Made by a program: the position numbers and the translations under genes. From Candidatus Saccharimonadales bacterium (GTDB lineage: Bacteria; Patescibacteriota; Saccharimonadia; Saccharimonadales; UBA10212): a DNA stretch of 64,000 bases. The notes beneath the pieces were generated by a model, which searched no databases, was not told the DNA's origin, and was given only the letters and a program-made list of their open reading frames with translations. The stretch is taken from the NCBI GenBank assembly GCA_038245195.1, contig JBBRSU010000001.1:121-64120 (forward strand), read 5' to 3'. Shown here piece by piece: positions 4,291 through 61,672 of this stretch (position 1 is its first letter; each line of letters opens with the position of its first letter).

Positions 4291-5153
4291 TGATGATCCT
4301 TAACTTTTCGTTTTTTCTTTAAAGCCACCACAATCTCGCGTGATCGGCGGTCGCCTTCACTCCGTTTAGCGCGGTGGTATTCCAGCTTATAGTACTGCAG
4401 GAGTTCATAGGCCCGTTTTTTGGCGACCGCCATGGCATTAAACCGGCTGGCATTCTGAGCTAAGTTGGATTCCAAAATTGCTTGGCTAAACGCCAGGGTC
4501 ATCATAGTACGCTCGATTAAATCGGCAATTTCATCAAGTGATGGCTCAAAAATAGTGTCTTTAGCAGTAATATAATCAGCCGCGTCAGCATTATCAACTT
4601 CCTGGCTCATCTCTTGGATGCTAGAAATTAAGTTTAAGCTTTTAATGCCCTGCACGCCCAGCGATACATACTCTTCGTAATACAAGGTTACTTGTGAATA
4701 AGAACTAATCGCGTCAATCACTGGGCTAACATCAATGTAGCTGTCGCTTTCCGGCACTTGAAAGTAGCGCACAAACGGAACCCCTCGTTGTTCGAGTTGG
4801 TTAGCCCCATGGGCACCAACCACAATGATATCGGTGTTGGCTTTATCGTAATTTTCTAACATGGTTTCAATCAAACGAGTATCGATATCACCACTAAGAC
4901 CGGCCTGGGCCGCAATAATTACTACGGCTTTCCTGGCATTAGGGTCATCGTTTCGATCGGTAATCCGCGAACCCGGCTCCACCCGCAGTGCCGTGTAAAG
5001 CCGCCACAAAAGTTGGAAAAATTCTTTAGATAACTCCACTTTGTCTTTGGTTCTGGCCACCTGGGTACTGCTAATACTCTCGAAAACCCCCGTCAAATCC
5101 TCAACTGTGCCAATCTGCTGGCTTTCCTGCTGAATTACATTAGCTTTACGCAT
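4287..5153 (-). CDS. atpG: F-type ATPase gamma subunit
   Basis: Lies between atpA and atpD. Contains VVIIAAQAGLSGDID and a C-terminal NASRFNAMAVAKKRA helix. Start trimmed to ATG 5153 (MRKANVIQ...), 6 nt after the atpA stop; the ORF-track start at 5222 overlaps atpA. Confidence 0.85.
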   Translation of the reverse strand: MRKANVIQQESQQIGTVEDLTGVFESISSTQVARTKDKVELSKEFFQLLWRLYTALRVEPGSRITDRNDDPNARKAVVIIAAQAGLSGDIDTRLIETMLENYDKANTDIIVVGAHGANQLEQRGVPFVRYFQVPESDSYIDVSPVIDAISSYSQVTLYYEEYVSLGVQGIKSLNLISSIQEMSQEVDNADAADYITAKDTIFEPSLDEIADLIERTMMTLAFSQAILESNLAQNASRFNAMAVAKKRAYELLQYYKLEYHRAKRSEGDRRSREIVVALKKKRKVKDHQ

Positions 5154-6645
5154 TGGCTGGCTCCTCAGTTTTGGCGGCCGGCACTGGCGTTGGAGGGGTC
5201 TTTTTAGCGACGGCCTCTTCAACCGTCTTAATCGGCGATGAATGTTTCTTTAAAAGTTCAACTTCCTGTTTATCAAAGTCAGTCTCGTCTTTAACTTTTG
5301 GCGCAACTTCGGTGGCCGAGTGTTTCAGGCCTTTGACGTCTATTTCTAACTTGCCTTCGCCCTTCAGGATAGTCTCTAGCACCAGCTGTTGTTCGATAAG
5401 CGAATGGCGCTCTTCAGGGGGCTGTTGCAGAGCTTCGTAGATTTGTTTGCCTAGCAAGAAATCAACCGCCGCTTCATTAGATAAGCTGGACCCGAAGTGC
5501 GAAAACTCTTCGGCTTGTTGGTATTTGGCCAAGCTTTTGAATAGGGTGCCCGATAAACGTTTTTGGCGTTTAGTTTGGGCTTGACCGCCAACTCGCGATA
5601 CCGACAGTCCGGCGTTAACCGCCGGACGAATACCTTTTCTAAAGTTCGATAAATCAAAGATAATTTGGCCGTCAGTAATCGACATAATGTTAGTCGAAAG
5701 ATAAGCTGTAATATCGTCGTTGGGTGTTATCACCACCGGTAGGGAGGTTAATGTTTTATTATTCACTGCTAGCTTGCCGGCTCTCTCTAACAGAGACGAG
5801 TGGGCATAGAACATATCACCAGGGTAAGAATCACGACCCGGATCAACTTCTTGGAGTAGTGACAACTGACGATAGGCTTCGGCGTGGCTACTTAAGTCAT
5901 CGTAAATAATAATTGTGTCCTGGCCAGCATTCCACAAAAATTCGGCCATGGAACAGGCCGCGTATGGGGCTACGTAAGACTGAGTCAGTGAATCAAAAAT
6001 GTCGGCTAGCACTACGATGGTATGCTCCATAGCACCGGAGCTCCTAAGACCGTTTAGCAAAGTTTCGATATCGACTTTGCGTTTACCTATTAGAACAAAA
6101 ACCACGACTCGGTCTGAACCAGCCTGGCTGGCACTGAGCTGGCTTAGATAAGTACTTTTGCCCGACTTAGTATCACCCAAGATGGCAATCCTCTGCCCCA
6201 AAACAACTGGGAAAAACATATCCACGGCCGCAACACCAGTAACTAGCTGTTCGTTCAACATGGTGCGAGCCATAATGCCCGGCGCGGCATTAAAAATGCC
6301 GGAGCGTTGCTTGGTAATAATCGGGCCTTTGCCATCTAGTGGCTCGCCCATAGGCGAAACAACTCTGCCGACCAACTCCCGTCCCACCGGCACCTGTAGT
6401 AAATCGTTAGCCACCACCGCCAAAGTACCCGGCTCCATGTGTTCACTATCTAAATTAAATAAAATTACTTTGTCGCCGTAGGCCTCACGTACTATGCCCC
6501 GCTGGCCATCTTCGAATAATATCTCGGAGCCCAAACGAACTCCTTCTAAGCCCTTCACTTCCACGATAAAGCTGTTGTTGGCCACAACTTCGCCGGTTAA
6601 TTGATTAGCTTCAACTAATTTCTGAAAAGTCTGATTATCAAACAT
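5146..6645 (-). CDS. atpA: F-type ATPase alpha subunit
   Basis: Walker A is GDTKSGKST; alpha-like throughout. Start trimmed to ATG 6645 (MFDNQTFQKL...), overlapping the atpH stop as ATGTTTGA. C-terminal Lys/Glu/Pro-rich tail. Confidence 0.95.
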   Translation of the reverse strand: MFDNQTFQKLVEANQLTGEVVANNSFIVEVKGLEGVRLGSEILFEDGQRGIVREAYGDKVILFNLDSEHMEPGTLAVVANDLLQVPVGRELVGRVVSPMGEPLDGKGPIITKQRSGIFNAAPGIMARTMLNEQLVTGVAAVDMFFPVVLGQRIAILGDTKSGKSTYLSQLSASQAGSDRVVVFVLIGKRKVDIETLLNGLRSSGAMEHTIVVLADIFDSLTQSYVAPYAACSMAEFLWNAGQDTIIIYDDLSSHAEAYRQLSLLQEVDPGRDSYPGDMFYAHSSLLERAGKLAVNNKTLTSLPVVITPNDDITAYLSTNIMSITDGQIIFDLSNFRKGIRPAVNAGLSVSRVGGQAQTKRQKRLSGTLFKSLAKYQQAEEFSHFGSSLSNEAAVDFLLGKQIYEALQQPPEERHSLIEQQLVLETILKGEGKLEIDVKGLKHSATEVAPKVKDETDFDKQEVELLKKHSSPIKTVEEAVAKKTPPTPVPAAKTEEPANA

Positions 6646-7123
6646 TTCGAAGCACTCCCGGGAATTTGGCTCGGTTGGCCAAAATTTGACGTTTAAACGA
6701 CCAGTCAAAAACGTGGCTACCACAGCGCACAACCATTCCGCCAAGCATGGTAGCGTTAAAGCTAAAATCAACCAGCAAATCGGTCCTTACGTTCTTTCTA
6801 AACCAGGCCACCATCTCCTGTTTTAGGCTATTAGGTGGCGGGGCGGCCAAGGTTATGTTCACATAAGTGGCTTTGGCTGCAAAATCGTTCAGCTCAGCCA
6901 CCAGCTCATCCAAACTTTTTTGAGTAATGGCCTGGCCATTGTGCCACTGGCTCGTTAAATCCTGCGCGGCTTGCGAAAGGCTCGGGCTAGCCGGGGCTTC
7001 ACTTCCAATCACCTGTTTCTTGATAGTGGCTTGAGACAACCATTTAGCTTGGCTCTTTAGCTCGGCAATTGCCGCCTTAAGATCTTGGCGAGTCACTATC
7101 TCAGGTGGCAGTTTCAACCGCAT
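6638..7123 (-). CDS. atpH: F-type ATPase delta (OSCP) subunit
   Basis: 161 aa, positioned between b and alpha. C-terminal LGGMVVRCGSHVFDWSFKRQL resembles the delta C-terminus. Confidence 0.7.
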   Translation of the reverse strand: MRLKLPPEIVTRQDLKAAIAELKSQAKWLSQATIKKQVIGSEAPASPSLSQAAQDLTSQWHNGQAITQKSLDELVAELNDFAAKATYVNITLAAPPPNSLKQEMVAWFRKNVRTDLLVDFSFNATMLGGMVVRCGSHVFDWSFKRQILANRAKFPGVLRNV

Positions 7124-10697: not shown

Positions 10698-11192
10698 TTA
10701 CTGAGTTAGATGTTGATGGGCAGTTTTGTAGACGTGAAGCTCTTCTTTGGTGAACCAATGGTCAATTTCTTGCTTGGCTTCTTTAGGGTCGGCTGAGGCA
10801 TGGATAAGGTTTGGTAGGCCACCGCCCTTTTCATTAGCGTGGTCAATGGTCATGTGGGCGTAGTCACCCCTAATAGTGCCGGGTTGGGCTTTGTGGGGTT
10901 CGGTTTCGCCAACCATCTTTCGGACAGTCGGCACGGCCTGAACACCCTCTAAAACAGCCGCAATCACCGGGCCACTCTCCATAAAATCAGCGTTACGGCG
11001 ATAGACTTCTTCGCCACGCCGACTAATCAGTTGCCCAATATTTTCATAATGATGGTGATAATGTGCTTCATCGGGGCTGACCATTTTAAGACCAACAATC
11101 TTCAAACCAGCCCGCTCGAATCGGCTTAATATTTCGCCAGCGATGCCCCGGGCAACGGCATCGGGCTTAAGTACAATCAAAGTTTTTTCCAT
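10698..11192 (-). CDS. ndk: Nucleoside diphosphate kinase
   Basis: MEKTLIVLKPDAVARGIAGEILSRFERAGLKIVGLKM... and the NLIHASAD active-site His motif. Confidence 0.95.
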   Translation of the reverse strand: MEKTLIVLKPDAVARGIAGEILSRFERAGLKIVGLKMVSPDEAHYHHHYENIGQLISRRGEEVYRRNADFMESGPVIAAVLEGVQAVPTVRKMVGETEPHKAQPGTIRGDYAHMTIDHANEKGGGLPNLIHASADPKEAKQEIDHWFTKEELHVYKTAHQHLTQ

Positions 11193-11268: not shown

Positions 11269-12180
11269 ATGGATTACGAGCAGGCCGTCGCCGAATTTCT
11301 GGAATACCTCGAGCTAGAACAGAACCGCTCAATGAAAACCATCCAAAACTATAGCCACTACCTTACGCGCCTGAGTGATTTTGCCGGTGAGATTAAGCTA
11401 AACGAAATCGACGATGAGTTAATTCGAAAGTGGCGGATGTGGCTCAACCGTTTGCCGACTAGCAATGCCGACGAGCTATCCAAGACTACTCAGAATTATC
11501 ACCTAATTGCCTTGCGGTCTTTTTTGCGGTTTTGTGCCAAGCGTAACTGGGCCACATTACAACCCGATAAAATTGAGCTAGCCCGGACCAAACGCCCCCA
11601 AGTAACGTTTTTAAACACCGAGGAGTTGGCTCGGCTAACTCAACAACCCGATATCACCAAACTAAACGGCTTACGCGACCGAGCCATTTTAGAGCTTCTA
11701 TTCTCAAGTGGCTTGCGCGTTAGTGAGTTGGTGGGGCTAGACCGAGACCATATTAATCTTAAAAGACGGGAATTTATGGTGCGAGGCAAAGGCCAAAAAG
11801 ACCGACCCATTTTTATCAGTCCCGATGCCGCTGATTGGATCCAAAAATATTTAGACCTTAGGGCAGACAATACTAAACCTTTGTTTATCAGATATAGCGG
11901 ATCTCGGAAAGTGGATAACAGCGGTAACTTTAGCCGCTTAACCGCCCGTAGCATTCAGCGGATGGTGGCCCGTTATGCCCTGCTGGCTGGAATTACTAAG
12001 CACGTGTCGCCTCATACGCTACGCCACAGCTTCGCTACTGACTTATTGATGAACGGGGCCGACTTACGTAGCGTACAAGCCATGTTGGGCCATAGTAATA
12101 TAGCCACAACCCAAATCTACACCCATGTTACCGACCCGCACCTAAAAGCGGTCCACGAAAAATTCCACGCCAAAAAATAG
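11269..12180 (+). CDS. Tyrosine site-specific recombinase, XerC/XerD family
   Basis: 303 aa with an SAM-like N-domain. Catalytic region HTLRHSFATDLL...LGHSNIATTQIYTHV. Confidence 0.9.
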   Translation: MDYEQAVAEFLEYLELEQNRSMKTIQNYSHYLTRLSDFAGEIKLNEIDDELIRKWRMWLNRLPTSNADELSKTTQNYHLIALRSFLRFCAKRNWATLQPDKIELARTKRPQVTFLNTEELARLTQQPDITKLNGLRDRAILELLFSSGLRVSELVGLDRDHINLKRREFMVRGKGQKDRPIFISPDAADWIQKYLDLRADNTKPLFIRYSGSRKVDNSGNFSRLTARSIQRMVARYALLAGITKHVSPHTLRHSFATDLLMNGADLRSVQAMLGHSNIATTQIYTHVTDPHLKAVHEKFHAKK

Positions 12181-27837: not shown

Positions 27838-28314
27838 CTACTGCTGCGGCGGTTTGATGAAGTACAGATTTGCGAACAGCTGGTCCGACAGAACACTGTT
27901 GTATGCCTGGACGTTCATCCTGACGTAGTTGCTCTTGGTTCCCGGCCAGACACCGTCCGGGAATTGTTTGCTGGTAAAAATGAACGTCACCTTGAACTTC
28001 ACCGTCTTGCCCGGCCTGAGCAATTTGATGTGGAATTTGCAGCTTCCACCAAACTCCGCGCTCTTGACGCAGCCAGCCGGCGTGCCGTAGATGAATTTCC
28101 TGGAGCTTATCTGTGCCCAGCCGTTACGCATGGCGATGTTTGTGCCGTTGTGCACCACCAGCATCTCGCTGGCCGGCTGGTCCAGCACGAACTGGTTGGG
28201 TCCATAGTCCAGCAGGACCGAGATGTCACCTCGGTACGCGCCGGCACTCAGCGGAATAACCAGCATAACTACAAGTGCCGCTAGCAGCGACACCCAAGTG
28301 ATGATGTTTCTCAT
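27838..28314 (-). CDS. Secreted hypothetical protein in GC-rich islet A
   Basis: MRNIITWVSLLAALVVMLVIPLSAGAYRG signal peptide and a GGGAGGG SD 5 nt upstream. Start trimmed from 28428. The antisense ORF 27796-28284 was judged spurious. Confidence 0.5.
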   Translation of the reverse strand: MRNIITWVSLLAALVVMLVIPLSAGAYRGDISVLLDYGPNQFVLDQPASEMLVVHNGTNIAMRNGWAQISSRKFIYGTPAGCVKSAEFGGSCKFHIKLLRPGKTVKFKVTFIFTSKQFPDGVWPGTKSNYVRMNVQAYNSVLSDQLFANLYFIKPPQQ

Positions 28315-28498
28315 TCTACCCTCCCGGGTGTCGTCGTCGAGCAGTAGGCTCGAAGAGTAATGTGCGGCCCCAAGACGGAGCCGCCTTGAAGATACTTTAG
28401 TCATACCACCAACAGAGATAAAAAGCAATTGCTAGTGCTTAGAAACTATTTCTTAGTATGTGAGCGCCGGTACCCGAACCGACGCTCAACAAATACAA

Positions 28499-41130: not shown

Positions 41131-41562
41131 TCAGGCGAACCGTTGTTTCCGTTGGCAGTACCGACGACCCTTGTAACGCTCCTTTCGACGCTGAACTTTC
41201 AGCGTCTGGTTACGCTCAAGGCGCAGGGCCTTCTCGGCACGTTTGACAGTTCGAGGCACAAGGCTCTCGAGAAACCATGTCTTGGCCTTTCGCACGAGTG
41301 CGAGAGCTTGCGTGGGTAGTACGCCGATGAAGACAATCTTGGCAAAGGCTTGTTGGCGTTGCTTGAGCTTGTGTGGTACATGCTCACTCACCTCCACCAG
41401 TTGCTTGTTGGGCAGTCGGCTCGACATGTAGTCGCAGAGCTCCTGCCGGAGTTCCCTGGGGAAATCCAAACGGGGATTCTCGGCAAGATACACCGTGGTC
41501 GTAGTGCCGTTGGTTGGTCCCAGACGCTCAAGTACAGCGTGTGGCGACGATACGGTTCGCAC
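41131..41562 (-). CDS. Hypothetical basic protein in GC-rich islet B
   Basis: At 143 aa this is the longest ORF in the region, with a very Arg/Lys-rich C-terminus. No family recognised. Several alternative-frame ORFs exist, so the frame call is weak. Confidence 0.4.
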   Translation of the reverse strand: MRTVSSPHAVLERLGPTNGTTTTVYLAENPRLDFPRELRQELCDYMSSRLPNKQLVEVSEHVPHKLKQRQQAFAKIVFIGVLPTQALALVRKAKTWFLESLVPRTVKRAEKALRLERNQTLKVQRRKERYKGRRYCQRKQRFA

Positions 41563-41771
41563 ATGTCCTCCTGGGGTAGACAGCGATCTGAACTAGTCGG
41601 AGTATAGCGTTATGAGTTTATATTGGTCAATATTTTATTGCTTTTGCAAGCATAAGCTTGACAAGTGAAAGAATAGTGGTAATATTGTTTCATTCGATTA
41701 GGTCCTCCGAAAAGGGCTTGCAAGTAGCACATATCCGTTCTCTCCCCAGACTCGAGAAAGGAATCATAGGC

Positions 41772-42107
41772 ATGTGTGTCGATCAGGAACTGAGCGAACG
41801 CCACGAGCGCCGCCTACAGCAGAAGAACCGGTCACGCACCTCCAGAACGATAAATCGAATGAAGGTAGCCGTGCGTCACAAGCGCGGGCACATCAGCGTC
41901 CCTCTGGTCCTGGCGGCCATCGACGAGGACGTCATCGACGCTCTCGGCCCTGTCAAGATCCTGGGCAATCGTCTGCCGCAAGTGGTTGAGCCCGTGCCGT
42001 CCCTCGAGGAGGCGCGGGCACCCATCTATCACAGGCGTCACGAGGACGAACAAGTACGCATGCGATGGCTCGCAGAGAATCCCTTCCCGGGTCTTTCCGC
42101 CGCCTAA
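41772..42107 (+). CDS. Hypothetical protein in GC-rich islet B, divergent from 41131-41562
   Basis: ATG 41772 is preceded by gaaaggaa and by TTGACA-N16/17-TAATAT at 41658-41686. 111 aa with a basic N-terminus. No family recognised. Confidence 0.4.
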   Translation: MCVDQELSERHERRLQQKNRSRTSRTINRMKVAVRHKRGHISVPLVLAAIDEDVIDALGPVKILGNRLPQVVEPVPSLEEARAPIYHRRHEDEQVRMRWLAENPFPGLSAA

Positions 42108-57346: not shown

Positions 57347-57919
57347 ATGAAAATTATAGGCATTGGCGGTACAAATGGTTCCGGGAAGGATACACTAAGC
57401 CAGATTTTAGCCGATGATTACGGGTGGTTATTCGTGTCCGTATCTGGGGATTTAATTATTCCCGAATTAATAAAACGCGGTCTACCACTGGAGCGCGAGC
57501 AAATGGCGGCCCTGACTGCCGAATGGAACCGAAAGATCAGTAAGGGTGCCGTAATAGCTAAGGCTGTTGAAAAATTTAATGAGTCGAGCAAAACGAAAAA
57601 ATATAATGGGCTGGTTATTTCAAGTATTAGACACCCCTGGGAGGCCGATAGAATCCATAATTTAGGCGGCAAATTAGTTTGGGTAGATGCCGACCCCAAA
57701 CTGCGTTACAACCGCATATTTAACAGAGGCCAGGGTGACAAAGACAAAAAATCTTTCGCCCTTTTCCAAGTCGAAGAACAAACCGAGAAAGACCACGCCG
57801 GAGATGAAGCGACTCTGAGCTGGCAGGGAGTTAAAGACCATGCTGATTTTTTTATAAAAAATGACAGTAATGATTTCGAAGCCTTCAAACAAACCGTCCA
57901 AAAAGCCTTAAACCTCTAG
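57347..57919 (+). CDS. P-loop nucleotide/nucleoside kinase-like protein (CoaE/dNK-like)
   Basis: 190 aa with P-loop GIGGTNGSGKDT. Specific substrate not inferable. Confidence 0.55.
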   Translation: MKIIGIGGTNGSGKDTLSQILADDYGWLFVSVSGDLIIPELIKRGLPLEREQMAALTAEWNRKISKGAVIAKAVEKFNESSKTKKYNGLVISSIRHPWEADRIHNLGGKLVWVDADPKLRYNRIFNRGQGDKDKKSFALFQVEEQTEKDHAGDEATLSWQGVKDHADFFIKNDSNDFEAFKQTVQKALNL

Positions 57920-57992
57920 TGTTTACTTTTAAGTTGTTATCTGATATAATATGTGATTCGGCCGGCTTTTTTTGGCCGACGTTCCTACGAAT

Positions 57993-58072
57993 AAGGAGAT
58001 GATGAACTTGCCGACTTTGCACGGTAGTTTGAAAGGAGATGATGAACTTGCCGACTTTGCACGGTAGTTTGA
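57993..58072 (+). repeat. Perfect 40-bp tandem duplication of the RBS plus the first 11 codons of the downstream gene
   Basis: aaggagatgatgaacttgccgactttgcacggtagtttga occurs at 57993-58032 and again at 58033-58072. Confidence 0.95.
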
Positions 58073-58917
58073 TCGGTTTGGACCCCTACGAGTTGACTGG
58101 AGTCCGCAAACTGGCGGAGCTCACAGGTCTCGAGTTGGGTCTCAGGCCTTCCAAAGTTTCTATCCAGCGCGTCTTTGACGCCTGGGGGACCGAAACAGCG
58201 TTCGAACAGAACGCCCCAGCTGTCGCCCAGGCCCTAAAGCTGGACAGCGGGACAGTTCCTGATGACGAGGTTCTGGACCTTCTCGATCAGACAACCACAC
58301 TCGACAAGATCGACATTCGGTCGCTCGACAGCCATATCCAGCCAACTGGTAGCCTGGTCGCTATCGCGACCGGTGCAACCGTCCGCTGGATGGAATATCG
58401 CATAAGGCAGATGCAACAGCACGTCAACAACGGCTACAGCATCGACAAGGTCTACGCCGTCGCCAACCACAATCGTCCCTGCAGCTTGCCTACCGAGGTG
58501 AATCATCCGGTGATCGTAGCTCTCCAGGAGGACTTAGGCCAGCAGCCGATGGAGCACCACGCGATGGAAAGGCTTCTCACGGAGGCCCAGTTTCCGGCGG
58601 AATTCATCACCGGCCCGTCGCTTGAGGCGAACATCGGGACTCTGATGGACCGCCATCCGGAGCTCGCCCATGCTCGAACCTACGTGCCTGTCAACGGCAA
58701 CGCCACCTACATCGCGTTGGCCGTTCGGCGGTTCATCCGGCAGTCTCAACCCTCCTTCGACGGGGGGCTGGACCAGTTCTTCTTTAGCCAGCGGACAATA
58801 CCGCTAGCCCGAACGCCGGAGCAAGCGGTCGACACTCTGCATTATCAGCGTCCGCTGACTGTGTTCAGTGGCCTCGCTCGGCTGATGAACGAGCTCTATC
58901 TCCTCCCGAGGAGCTAG
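58039..58917 (+). CDS. Hypothetical protein in GC-rich islet C
   Basis: 292 aa ORF with clearly G/C-ending codons, unlike neighbouring genes. No family recognised. Confidence 0.55.
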   Translation: MMNLPTLHGSLIGLDPYELTGVRKLAELTGLELGLRPSKVSIQRVFDAWGTETAFEQNAPAVAQALKLDSGTVPDDEVLDLLDQTTTLDKIDIRSLDSHIQPTGSLVAIATGATVRWMEYRIRQMQQHVNNGYSIDKVYAVANHNRPCSLPTEVNHPVIVALQEDLGQQPMEHHAMERLLTEAQFPAEFITGPSLEANIGTLMDRHPELAHARTYVPVNGNATYIALAVRRFIRQSQPSFDGGLDQFFFSQRTIPLARTPEQAVDTLHYQRPLTVFSGLARLMNELYLLPRS

Positions 58918-58947
58918 GGAAGGCGAACTCTCCTTGTTCGTGTTTAA

Positions 58948-58990
58948 AAGCCCCGCGGCGTTCTTTACGCCCGGGGCTTCTTCCTTTATA
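58948..58990 (+). terminator. GC-rich hairpin plus T-rich tail downstream of the islet C ORF
   Basis: AAGCCCCG...CGGGGCTT with an inner GGCG/CGCC helix, followed by cttcctttat. Confidence 0.55.
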
Positions 58991-59027
58991 AAAACCATAA
59001 GCACTCCCTGTTTTAACAGATACGGCG

Positions 59028-59033
59028 TATAAT
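59028..59033 (+). promoter_or_regulatory. -10 box TATAAT 8 nt upstream of the polA GTG start
   Basis: gcgTATAATttaaggtaGTG. Confidence 0.4.
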
Positions 59034-59041
59034 TTAAGGTA

Positions 59042-61672
59042 GTGACTGAGAGGAAAAAACTAGCTGTTATAGACGGAAAATCGGTATTTTACAGGGGCTA
59101 TTACGCCATGCCCAATTTAAGCACCGGCGATGGTGTGCCTACCGGTGGCGTATTTGGTTTCACCACCATGGCATTGGAGCTCATCAAGAAACTTAAGCCT
59201 GATTACGTTTGCGTAGCATGGGATAAACCCAAAACTAATATCCGGAAACGTCTGGAAATGTACCCCGAATATAAAGCTGGTCGCAAACCGGCACCACCCG
59301 ATTTTTATACCCAAATCCCAATATTGCACGATGTGCTAAACGCTTTTGGCTGGCCACTTTATGAGCTAGACGATTACGAAGCCGACGATATAATGGGGAC
59401 TTTAGCCGTCGAGGCCGAAAAAGCCGGCCTTGAGACCCTATTAATTACCAGCGACTTGGATATGCTGCAGCTAGTTAATCGAAATGTGAAGGTTTACGCC
59501 CTAAAACGCGGCTTTTCTAATATTGAAGAGTTTCACCCCCAGAGTTTCGAGGCCAAGTACGGCATAAAGGCTACTCAATTCCTAGATTTAAAGGCCTTAA
59601 AAGGTGACAGCAGTGACAATATACCAGGCGTACCGGGTATCGGCGAAAAGGGCGCTTTGGATTTACTCAAAGAATACAAAACCCTAGACGGTGTTTATGA
59701 AAATCTACCGAAAGTTAAAGAGGGTGTCCGCAAAAAATTAGAGGCCGGCAAAGACTCTGCTTATCTTAGTAAAAAAATCGCCGCTATCTGGTGTGATGCC
59801 CCACTGCCGCTCAATTTAGACGAGATGGACGGTACCAAAATCGATACCGCTGCTTTACGAGCCTTATTAGAAAAACTAGAGTTCAGGAGTTTATTACGCA
59901 ACCTGCCAGATAATATGCGAGGTAGCGAGCCGGTTGTCGAAACAATCGGCGGCATCAAATTAGCTTTGGGCAAAAATCAGATTATCGAAAAAGCCCAGGA
60001 TTTACCCAAACTAGGCAATTCTAAGAATTTTTATATCCATAGCCGGGCTTCTGGCAAACACGGCGCTAAACCGGAAGTCTTGATAATCGGTTTGGATGAT
60101 AAACAAGTCTACACTTTGGATTTGCGTAAGCTAGACCACAAGTTGGTGACCAGCTACCTTAATGATGCAAGGCCGTTGATTGGCTACGATATTAAATCGA
60201 CACTAAAGATGCTACGTAGTATGGGCGTTAAAGACTTTCCAGAAGTTGGACACGACGTATTGGTTGGAGCTTTTTTAATAAACCCGCTCATCCGCAGTCA
60301 ATCATTAAACGAACTGGCTTACAGCCAGCTTAATTATGATGGTACATCATTAGACGATCTCGATTCAGACCAATTGATAGACCGAGCTCCCGAAGTAATG
60401 GCGGTAGTTAGGGAGCTTCATAAAAATCAGCTCAAAACCCTAGAAGATATGCCTAAAGTTGGCCAACTAGCCAAAGACATTGAGTGGCCCCTAATACCTG
60501 TGCTGGCCAACATGGAATATGAAGGTATCCAACTAGATACCGGTTATTTAAAGAAGTTCGCCAAGGAGTTGGAAGGCAGTATCAGCGATGTTGAGCAACA
60601 AATTTATGGTCATGCCGACCAAGAATTTAACATCGGCAGCCCTAGTCAGTTGGCCGACATTCTGTTCGTAAAACTGAACCTACCAACCCAAGGTATCAAA
60701 AAAGGTAAAACCGGTTTATCAACTGCCGCACCTGAATTAAGCAAGCTTCGAGGGGCCCATCCCATTATTGATTTAATCAGCCAATACCGTGAAGTGGTCA
60801 AACTTAAAAATACTTACGTTGATACTTTACCCGAACAAGTTGATAAGCATAGTCGAGTTCACACCACTTTTAGTCTAACAATCGCTCCAACCGGACGGCT
60901 ATCTAGTTCCGACCCAAATTTACAAAATATCCCCGTTAAAACTGATTTGGGTCGCCGGATTCGCACGGCGTTTGTGGCCGGTAAAGGCCAGGTGCTTATC
61001 AGTGCCGATTACAGCCAATTCGAACTACGCTTAGCTGCCGCACTGTCTGGTGATGAGGGAATGATAACTGCCTTTAATAAAGATGCCGATATCCATGTGG
61101 AAACCGCCGCCCAGGTTTACGGTATCGATGCTAAAGACGTTACTAAAGCCCAACGTTCATCTGTTAAAGAAGTTAATTTCGGGATTTTATATGGACTTGG
61201 TCCGCATGCCCTAAGCCAAAGTACTGGCATGAGCTTCGGCGAAGCTAAAGATTTTATTACCAAATATTTTGAAATCCGCCCCAAGCTCAAGCAATATATC
61301 GAAAAAACCCGCAAAATGGCCGAGCAGGCTGGTTACGTTGAAACTTTGCTAGGTCGGCGGCGGCCAACCCCAGACGTTCAATCGCCAAACTTCCAGGTTA
61401 GGGAAGGGGCTTATCGTGCAGCCGTTAACATGCCCTTGCAGGGCAGTGCCGCCGACATCATGAAAATCGCTATGAATAACATCGCCACCAAGCTTGATAA
61501 AGACTGCAAGCTGCTGCTACAAATACACGATAGTGTGATTTTAGAAGTGCCTAAAGCCAAAGCTGAGACCGTTAGCAAAATGGTCAAACAAACCATGGAG
61601 CAAGCCTACACCAAGCTGCCAATAAAACTTAAGGCCGACGTTTCCATCGGCCAAAACTGGGGCGAATTATGA
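59042..61672 (+). CDS. polA: DNA polymerase I
   Basis: 876 aa. 5'-3' exonuclease domain, a 3'-5' exo-like middle domain, and polymerase motifs (SADYSQFELR, QIHDSVILEV). Confidence 0.96.
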   Translation: MTERKKLAVIDGKSVFYRGYYAMPNLSTGDGVPTGGVFGFTTMALELIKKLKPDYVCVAWDKPKTNIRKRLEMYPEYKAGRKPAPPDFYTQIPILHDVLNAFGWPLYELDDYEADDIMGTLAVEAEKAGLETLLITSDLDMLQLVNRNVKVYALKRGFSNIEEFHPQSFEAKYGIKATQFLDLKALKGDSSDNIPGVPGIGEKGALDLLKEYKTLDGVYENLPKVKEGVRKKLEAGKDSAYLSKKIAAIWCDAPLPLNLDEMDGTKIDTAALRALLEKLEFRSLLRNLPDNMRGSEPVVETIGGIKLALGKNQIIEKAQDLPKLGNSKNFYIHSRASGKHGAKPEVLIIGLDDKQVYTLDLRKLDHKLVTSYLNDARPLIGYDIKSTLKMLRSMGVKDFPEVGHDVLVGAFLINPLIRSQSLNELAYSQLNYDGTSLDDLDSDQLIDRAPEVMAVVRELHKNQLKTLEDMPKVGQLAKDIEWPLIPVLANMEYEGIQLDTGYLKKFAKELEGSISDVEQQIYGHADQEFNIGSPSQLADILFVKLNLPTQGIKKGKTGLSTAAPELSKLRGAHPIIDLISQYREVVKLKNTYVDTLPEQVDKHSRVHTTFSLTIAPTGRLSSSDPNLQNIPVKTDLGRRIRTAFVAGKGQVLISADYSQFELRLAAALSGDEGMITAFNKDADIHVETAAQVYGIDAKDVTKAQRSSVKEVNFGILYGLGPHALSQSTGMSFGEAKDFITKYFEIRPKLKQYIEKTRKMAEQAGYVETLLGRRRPTPDVQSPNFQVREGAYRAAVNMPLQGSAADIMKIAMNNIATKLDKDCKLLLQIHDSVILEVPKAKAETVSKMVKQTMEQAYTKLPIKLKADVSIGQNWGEL

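Follow-up and report, generated by a model that had tools for sequence, protein, structure and literature searches.

A 64,000-nucleotide stretch of a Candidatus Saccharimonadales genome (contig JBBRSU010000001.1; "the window" below means this whole stretch) carries, between a kinase-like gene and polA, a gene for an uncharacterised protein, here called protein X, whose coding sequence (58039-58917, + strand) is far richer in G+C than the DNA around it. To judge from sequence, positions 57922-58992 form a self-contained cassette made up of promoter, 5' stem-loop, Shine-Dalgarno site, coding sequence, 3' untranslated region (UTR) and terminator. A preliminary description of this DNA had taken the gene for a foreign islet inserted at this place. 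On balance we incline to another reading: that the gene is native to the Saccharimonadales and not a recent import, that its high G+C at third codon positions (GC3) has been maintained, and that its mRNA is probably clamped by pairing between a 3'-UTR element and the Shine-Dalgarno region.

The compositional anomaly itself is plain. The open reading frame (ORF) contains 58.9% G+C compared with 45.9% across the window, which places it within the top 0.13% of all 879-nt segments (the best segment elsewhere reaches 55.3%), and 58001-59000 is the richest of the 64 1-kb bins. Its GC1/GC2/GC3 values are 0.63/0.41/0.73, as compared with means of 0.53/0.40/0.47 over the 61 ORFs of the window (GC3 standard deviation 0.074); its GC3 is the highest among the 61, and only two of them deviate more in synonymous-codon likelihood. 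The enriched codons (CTC, GTC, ATC, GAC, CCG, GCG and CAG) end in both C and G. Outside X, CTC is the rarest leucine codon of the window (7%), and within X it is the commonest (36%); in the two-fold pyrimidine families most codons end in C (GAC 88%, AAC 82%, ATC 79%, TTC 70%), and G-ending codons are up equally (GAG 71%, CAG 83%, AAG 60%). In this part the preliminary description was accurate: the 292-aa ORF that it placed at 58039-58917 on the + strand is confirmed by the ORF list and the translation, its counts of 36/60 G+C at 58081-58140 and 19/60 at 57841-57900 are exact, and its claim of mostly G/C-ending codons holds up under the codon statistics that it had proposed as a check, by which the ORF is quantitatively deviant.

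Homologues of X occupy the same region in relatives. In 12 of 13 located loci (L001, L002, L004, L005, L006/L007/L010, L009, L011, L012, L013 and L017, the exception being L003) X lies within a region running dnaG, rpoD, extra sigma factors where present, an AAA_17/18 kinase-like gene and, further on, polA; the kinase-like orthologue adjoins X or is near it in L001, L005, L009, L011, L013 and L017. The loci were found via X itself, except L017, which was found via polA, and the metagenome scan for loci used a narrow alignment, the alignment A2 being too diverse. All 13 located homologue loci are of Saccharimonadales type, most of the 164 family representatives described below having had no taxonomy checked. 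The polA sequences form a clade A (window, L001, L002, L007, L009 and others; 68-81% identity within) and a clade B (L004, L005 and L013; 68-76% within), with 60-67% identity between A and B, and the X subfamilies split in the same way, with protein identities of 30-65% within A, 40-54% within B and 19-28% between them. The clade-A form stands at the same site in L001, L002, L007, L009, L011 and L017, and the diverged subfamily at the same site in L004, L005, L012 and L013.

The slot between the kinase-like gene and polA is variable in content. Of four relatives sampled through polA, and hence without bias toward X, three (L014, L015 and L016, with polA identities to the window of 80%, 81% and 75-76%) have no X homologue in any frame, and L017 (71%) is the only one with the gene. 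From the kinase stop to the conserved block upstream of polA, L014 instead contains a 64-aa ORF, L015 an 88-aa and a 114-aa ORF, and L016 a 488-aa ORF. A neighbor-joining tree of polA groups the window with these three (83% bootstrap), whereas the X of the window is closest to that of L011 (65% identity, 100% bootstrap), a locus whose kinase is 71% identical to that of L001, 65% to L009, 63% to L017 and 52% to that of the window. Because the slot is patchy and the X tree and the kinase are discordant, the cassette appears to have undergone repeated loss, exchange between members of the clade, or both, and exchange among close relatives is probable. The route may have been natural transformation and homologous recombination via the conserved flanks, since Saccharibacteria are naturally competent and DNA with 1-kb homologous flanks recombines in them (PMC10633639), which would supply a mechanism of exchange needing no mobility genes; no integrase, transposase, tRNA or flanking direct repeat was found in or beside the slot. 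The stretch from rpoD to the kinase-like gene is also variable, since one or two extra sigma-70 paralogues lie there in L001 (6345-8827), L002 (6490-9264) and L014-L017 and none in the window. The claim of an inserted foreign islet is thus upheld as regards a variable slot and fails as regards foreign origin, and the synteny check proposed with it gave a divided answer: the homologues lie in the same region in nearly all located loci, which is the refuting outcome, yet three of the four polA-sampled relatives are without the gene.

The bias of the window gene is common to clade A. Compared with the window, where X has a GC3 of 0.73 over a local background of 0.47, the eight other clade-A assemblies give X values from 0.58 to 0.93 over backgrounds of 0.40-0.71: 0.84 over 0.44 in L011, 0.86 over 0.60 in L001, 0.82 over 0.47 in L002, 0.79 over 0.53 in L003, 0.85 over 0.71 in L007, 0.58 over 0.44 in L009, 0.93 over about 0.40 in L017, and 0.77 in L008, where X was recovered alone without flank. 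The homologues that clade B has in the same slot show GC3 values at or below background (L004 0.31 over 0.36, L005 0.40 over 0.47, L012 0.38 over about 0.50, L013 0.56 over about 0.70). At conserved amino acids the four-fold sites of clade-A orthologues are 0.23-0.44 identical, where 0.27-0.35 is expected from composition; the synonymous sites have therefore turned over to saturation even in the closest pair, and a bias kept through such turnover is not a fading donor signature, which should have decayed. The rise in G+C sets in at the start codon: in seven orthologues the 80-125 nt of 5' non-coding sequence of the cassette contain 32-43% G+C, and the flanks of the cassette are at background. 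On these comparisons high GC3 is a maintained property of the clade-A coding sequence and not unameliorated donor DNA.

The main rival explanation of these facts is GC-biased gene conversion acting at a recombination-prone slot within a native cassette, with the RNA features described below being incidental. Related strains would swap alleles by transformation, and a fixation bias from A/T to G/C would lift GC3 most, then GC1, then GC2. This is the order seen in X (GC3 >> GC1 > GC2), and the rise of both C- and G-ending codons, the variable slot, the patchy distribution, the discordance of X tree and kinase, and the natural competence of Saccharibacteria (PMC10633639) all fit. Recombining bacterial genes do have higher GC3, raised more than their total G+C and mainly via non-optimal codons (PMC4450053), and X resembles them in both respects as well as in lying where recombination is likely. 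However, the published effects are small (R2 0.03-0.09 in S. pyogenes; PMC4450053) compared with shifts of +0.14 to +0.5 here, and the shift in X is confined to the translated part although conversion tracts should run across the start codon regardless. In clade B the homologues occupying this slot have a GC3 slightly under background, and the matching 5' and 3' elements of the cassette are left unexplained. Gene conversion as the cause is therefore considered unlikely, while retaining a real share of our belief.

Recent transfer from a G+C-rich outside donor, for example an actinobacterial host, with the bias as an unameliorated signature, is the explanation that composition alone would suggest: the GC3 and codon usage are extreme for the window, the nearest polA relatives are without X, and cultivated Saccharibacteria live on G+C-rich Actinobacteria (PMC10633639). 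Like acquired genomic islets, X has atypical G+C and codons, sharp boundaries and a variable slot from which it is missing in the nearest relatives. Unlike them it comes with no mobility genes, no tRNA or repeat borders and no donor; it keeps the same locus across the order, and it shows no relaxation toward host composition despite saturated synonymous sites, the saturated orthologues all being high in GC3. The family has only 164 members among 1.84 billion representatives, nearly all about 290-300 aa, and those located are confined to Saccharimonadales-type loci, all but L003 in one and the same region. Conservation extends beyond the gene to its promoter and leader, both of them AT-rich, and to its 3' UTR. 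The donor lineage that the preliminary description had hoped to name did not emerge, and tblastn of X against phage and plasmid collections returned no homologue. Recent foreign import is thus largely refuted, as far as synteny and the conserved regulatory regions can tell, and we give it very little credence.

One feature that sets clade A apart at the RNA level is complementarity between the two ends of the message. The 3' UTR, which is short (~75 nt), carries just 5' of the terminator an element (A/C)CTCCTTGTTCG that is the reverse complement of the leader sequence CGAACAAGGAG; CTCCTTGTTCG is kept in L001, L002, L007 (as TTCCTTGTTCG), L009 and L011. In the window the 5' strand of the predicted long-range helix, UACGAAUAAGGAGA (57986-57999, +), holds the original Shine-Dalgarno site, and the 3' strand, the anti-Shine-Dalgarno element UCUCCUUGUUCGUG, lies at 58929-58942 (+). 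Whole transcripts from predicted start to terminator (~1 kb) were folded for seven orthologues (window, L001, L002, L003, L007, L011 and L017), and in all seven the Shine-Dalgarno region pairs with the 3'-UTR element at an ensemble probability of 0.85-0.998, with 14-25 long-range base pairs. The window helix, of 14 bp with two G-U pairs, is part of the minimum-energy fold and has an ensemble probability of 0.998. Contiguous complementarity amounts to 14 bp in the window and 9-12 in the other orthologues, as compared with a mean of 7.4 (sd 1.5) in 58 control genes. L003 and L017 have other leaders, and their 3' elements are changed to match: their own duplexes reach -26.3 and -25.0 kcal/mol, mismatched partners give -10 to -19, and 0 of 1000 shuffles were as good. 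The evidence for these helices consists of duplex energies, shuffles and a cross-pairing matrix, the internal loops of L003 and L017 differing in length so that the two cannot be aligned in register. The pairing is present in none of the four clade-B homologues. The 3'-UTR element is accordingly predicted, and only predicted, to hide the Shine-Dalgarno site in a panhandle of the kind described for icaR.

The same elements might instead act on DNA, as inverted repeats serving an inversion switch or excision and insertion, and such a role would accord with the 10-14 bp inverted repeats that all clade-A orthologues have on either side of the coding sequence, with their joint change in L003 and L017, and with the presence or absence of X at one slot. 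Yet the left repeat is none other than the Shine-Dalgarno site, and the promoter and terminator, which the repeats do not enclose, still accompany the gene. Orientation is the same in all independent assemblies that show the flanks, genomes without X show no leftover repeat, and no invertase or recombinase is encoded nearby, the only one in the window being an Xer-like gene at 11269-12180. A DNA-level role is thus highly improbable.

The coding RNA of clade A is also unusually structured. In the window the folding z of the X coding sequence is -5.2 by the folding tool, -6.8 by our own dinucleotide shuffles and -3.8 by synonymous-codon shuffles. Mean values with dinucleotide and synonymous-codon shuffles, respectively, are -4.0 and -3.2 for clade-A orthologues (n = 8), -1.7 and -1.6 for genes of relatives with GC3 about 0.7 (n = 8), -0.8 and -0.75 for ordinary window genes (n = 10), and -0.8 and -0.6 for clade-B homologues (n = 4). 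The excess of X over the G+C-matched controls is consistent among orthologues. High GC3, excess folding and the 5'-3' clamp thus co-occur in clade A and are all missing in clade B.

The window carries an exact 40-bp tandem duplication, overlooked in the preliminary description, with copies at 57993-58032 and 58033-58072 (57993-58072, + strand; Tandem Repeats Finder, period 40, 100% match). It spans the Shine-Dalgarno site, the ATGATGAAC-TTG start and the first codons; L011, the closest orthologue, has a single copy. As a 40-bp repeat shifts the reading frame, copy 1 begins an out-of-frame upstream ORF of 22 codons (57999-58067, +) that, as read from the sequence, ends 19 nt inside the real ORF. 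Copy 2 supplies a second Shine-Dalgarno site, AAGGAG (58033-58038, +), ahead of the real ORF. Copy 1 keeps the full 14-nt complement of the 3' element, while copy 2 shares only AAGGAGA; the respective duplexes are -21.3 and -15.1 kcal/mol, and the copy 2 site has a probability of 0.0 of pairing with the 3' element and an overall pairedness of 0.65. If the clamp represses translation, the duplication would probably relieve that repression in this genome. The start codon is likely TTG 58048 (289 aa) rather than ATG 58039 (292 aa), because the length of P0001 at NCBI (289 aa, 100% identical to the window product), the 9-nt spacing from AAGGAG and the start of L011 agree.

Translational selection, by which a very highly expressed X would have accumulated optimal C-ending codons, is the least credible of the explanations, since the dominance of C-ending codons in the two-fold pyrimidine families, the near-consensus promoter and the strong Shine-Dalgarno site that favor it are set against an equal rise of G-ending codons, the preference for CTC, a codon rare elsewhere in the window, the background GC3 of 0.47 of the window's GroEL gene, which is normally highly expressed, and the lack of such bias in the clade-B homologues. 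Two further candidates were considered and dismissed. The idea that a conserved antisense or overlapping gene imposes the G+C bias fails, as the antisense ORFs of the window do not exceed 90 aa and the long one of L017 is a by-product of its GC3 of 0.93. An assembly chimera fails, as the same cassette with the same flanking genes is found in several independent assemblies.

We return to the reading of a native cassette with maintained bias and a probable clamp, which we regard as somewhat probable when taken as a whole. Selection on RNA is the simplest single account of clade-A GC3, excess folding and clamp, because clade A has all three traits and clade B none of them; it is a quite possible account, one that we rate below the descriptive reading itself. 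In such an account the 3'-UTR element would pair with the leader Shine-Dalgarno site and close the mRNA into a panhandle, which would keep the message translationally silent until the helix is opened. G/C third positions would give a compact, highly paired coding RNA able to survive without ribosome protection, and hairpins would cap both ends of the message. The duplication in the window would then supply a second Shine-Dalgarno site and start that do not match the 3' element. In its most specific and more doubtful form, the proposal is that X exemplifies a class of latent mRNA, with clamped Shine-Dalgarno site and capped ends, whose GC3 has been driven up for a nuclease-resistant RNA that persists untranslated until a signal arrives. 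The codon bias, which looks like that of horizontally transferred genes, would then be an RNA-level adaptation, and the 40-bp duplication a natural de-repression mutation in which one Shine-Dalgarno copy serves as decoy for the clamp. We consider this form unlikely, though worth stating.

A number of points weigh against the reading and its RNA-level extension. The GC3-matched controls also beat their shuffles (z -1.7), so that the excess of X is modest (1.5-2.3 z, n = 8 per group). Four of 16 window control genes, folded with arbitrary ends, also pair the Shine-Dalgarno window end-to-end in RNAfold, and complementarity over 11 nt or more occurs in three of 58 control genes. One element pair is common to five of the orthologues, which thus count as one evolutionary observation, independent support coming from L003 and L017 only. 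The RNA evidence is wholly computational, with transcript ends inferred from consensus motifs, and the 40-bp duplication could be an assembly error. The patchy presence of X and the discordance of its tree with the kinase also fit repeated lateral acquisition; the unbiased relatives number four, and the trees are neighbor-joining trees with moderate support. Finally, we know of no precedent for RNA-level selection raising GC3 to 0.93 in a genome whose own GC3 is 40%.

The remaining parts of the cassette are conserved with the gene. At its left edge in the window, the kinase-like gene (57347-57919, +; AAA_17/AAA_18 by Pfam and NCBIfam matches) is followed by a putative promoter at 57922-57950 (+), with a -35 hexamer TTTACT at 57922-57927, a 17-nt spacer and an extended -10, TG-n-TATAAT, with TATAAT at 57945-57950; a consensus scan gives 10/12 positions with TG present. 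The promoter that the preliminary description proposed just upstream of the gene is therefore borne out, read as TTTACT with a 17-nt spacer. A motif TTTACTTTTT-N-TGATATAA(T/C) is found at the equivalent position in L001, L002, L006/L007 and L011, so that the pattern of a sigma-70 extended -10 promoter appears to be kept at five orthologous loci. A stem-loop is predicted near the presumed mRNA 5' end at 57958-57979 (+) and in four orthologues, at equal position and with different stems (TCGGCC/GGCCGA, TTCGGC/GCCGAA, TTCGACT/AGTCGAA and CTCAGCT/AGCTGGG across the loci). Promoter and leader together have 73% mean column identity across clade A, which also keeps the block GAACAAGGAG(G), the 5' stem-loop, the 3' UTR and the terminator hairpin.

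Downstream of the coding sequence an intrinsic terminator (58948-58992, +) consists of the G+C-rich hairpin that the preliminary description had noted, placed here at 58948-58979, followed by the T-rich tail cttcctttat. The surrounding region 58918-59045 folds with z = -3.6; a simple terminator scan overlooked the hairpin owing to a bulge in its stem. The orthologous terminators in L001, L002, L007, L009, L011 and L017 have hairpins of other sequence followed by CTCTTTCCTTTTT. The right edge of the variable slot is the conserved polA upstream block CCATAAGC...TTTTAACAGATACGGCGTATAAT (58993-59041, +), which aligns across genomes with and without X; it is kept in L001, L002, L007, L009, L014 and L015 and is more diverged in L016 and L017. 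Its TTAACA and TATAAT are only 9 nt apart, leaving the -35 element ambiguous. In L009 a 90-aa ORF (10766-11038, +) follows the X stop and precedes the anti-Shine-Dalgarno element and terminator; a clamp there would enclose a two-gene message, and the X of L009 has the lowest GC3 of clade A (0.58). Elsewhere in the window, the control gene at 5146-6771 (-) has 14 nt of complementarity between leader and 3' flank (CCGATTTGCTGGTT / AGCCAGCAGATTGG).

Protein X itself appears to be a real, folded, Rossmann-like and uncharacterised protein with no close solved relative. As the preliminary description found, it can be assigned to no family: Pfam, NCBIfam, PHROGs and PADLOC gave no match for the window protein, Pfam gave no consistent match for 10 distant members or for the 41 members of alignment A2, a sequence-profile search of the PDB gave no relative, and no PADLOC defense-system model matches X. 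A word-indexed search of 5.8 billion proteins returned six relatives, and a profile search of 1.84 billion cluster representatives returned 164 at E <= 0.001, 33 of them at E <= 1e-30, nearly all of 285-310 aa. Four long proteins (P0038, P0041, P0044 and P0047; 650-700 aa) carry the X domain at the C-terminus and share an N-terminal domain of ~350 aa without Pfam match; this fusion is not in the window, and a search of all fetched loci found the N-terminal domain in none. The public gene call in L017 (4918-5901, -) is antisense to the X homologue (5005-5913, +), and its GC1 of 0.89 mirrors the sense GC3 of 0.93; extreme codon bias evidently misleads gene callers, with the consequence that the X family is under-represented in protein databases.

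AlphaFold predicts an N-terminal helical domain and a C-terminal five-stranded alpha/beta domain, with pLDDT 81.7 for the whole protein and pLDDT 93.3 and pTM 0.88 for residues 100-292 (27-sequence alignment); residues conserved in the family are G112, W117, R146, E153, E172, N221, R230, D241 and Q270. Foldseek searches of the PDB with whole and domain models gave at best a TM of 0.38, to a ferredoxin-reductase-type NADP-binding domain, a generic Rossmann-like likeness, and the viral structures of BFVD gave no match at E <= 0.001 (best TM 0.40, query-normalised). X has the three-layer alpha/beta/alpha arrangement with five parallel strands of Rossmann-like nucleotide-binding domains, and weak Foldseek scores (TM 0.34-0.43) link it to the ferredoxin-reductase-type NADP-binding, nucleotidyltransferase and DUF218 classes, one X member having a marginal DUF218 match. 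Unlike those families, it reaches TM >= 0.5 with none and has no glycine-rich dinucleotide-binding motif, and its conserved residues fit no nameable motif; membership in any of the three is not supported. From the fold class and the neighboring genes (the kinase-like gene, of deoxynucleoside monophosphate kinase type, and polA, with deaminase and NUDIX genes downstream) our best guess, loosely held, is that X binds or processes a nucleotide-like ligand. The kinase-like gene has its best NCBIfam match to an archaeal-type hypothetical kinase, and it weakly matches the kinase part of anti-phage dCTP deaminase (PADLOC dCTPase 1.3e-8, NCBIfam NF041025 8e-6).

Two other G+C-rich places in the window were noted. 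A 196-aa ORF at 27838-28428 (-), with a hydrophobic N-terminal stretch, is a second GC3 outlier (0.71; folding z -2.7 and -2.8), with no Pfam match and no homologue in the fetched loci. The stretch 41131-42107 (1-kb bin 0.546) contains ORFs 41131-41562 (-) and 41658-42107 (+), with GC3 of 0.63 and 0.66, whose Arg/Lys-rich translations are unlike proteins and which have no Pfam, Rfam or tRNA match; the stretch is possibly non-coding, or else read in the wrong frame. The only Rfam matches in the whole window are three tRNAs, none of them in or around X.

Pairing of mRNA ends has been described in two other bacteria. In icaR of S. aureus a 3'-UTR motif pairs with the Shine-Dalgarno region and represses translation (PMC3868564). 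X resembles it in being monocistronic, with its own promoter and terminator, and in having a 3'-UTR motif complementary to its own Shine-Dalgarno region that would be expected to block ribosome binding. X differs in that its pairing is predicted only, in its ~75-nt 3' UTR with a helix of 10-25 bp directly upstream of the terminator, in its Patescibacterium host, and in a coding sequence that is compositionally abnormal and over-structured. In hbs of B. subtilis an interaction of 5' and 3' UTRs controls ribonuclease access and protects against RNase Y and J1 (PMC5737220). There, as would hold for X, the mRNA ends interact, the 5' region is structured and mRNA stability is tied to translation initiation; unlike that proposed for X, the hbs pairing shields the message from the two nucleases and does not hide the Shine-Dalgarno site.

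Unusual G+C content and codon usage are commonly taken as marks of horizontal transfer, and X passes a screen of this kind, yet it is at home in one and the same locus throughout the order. Since its bias outlasts synonymous turnover, it appears to be actively maintained, and such screens can accordingly mislead. Protein X represents a confidently folded, uncharacterised family located so far only in Saccharimonadales-type loci; Saccharimonadales must scavenge nucleotides from their hosts, and X adjoins genes of nucleotide handling and replication. If the 5'-3' pairing is true, regulation of the icaR type would extend to the Patescibacteria, a group in which RNA-level regulation is to our knowledge almost unstudied, and the codon composition of a gene would be linked to the architecture of its mRNA.

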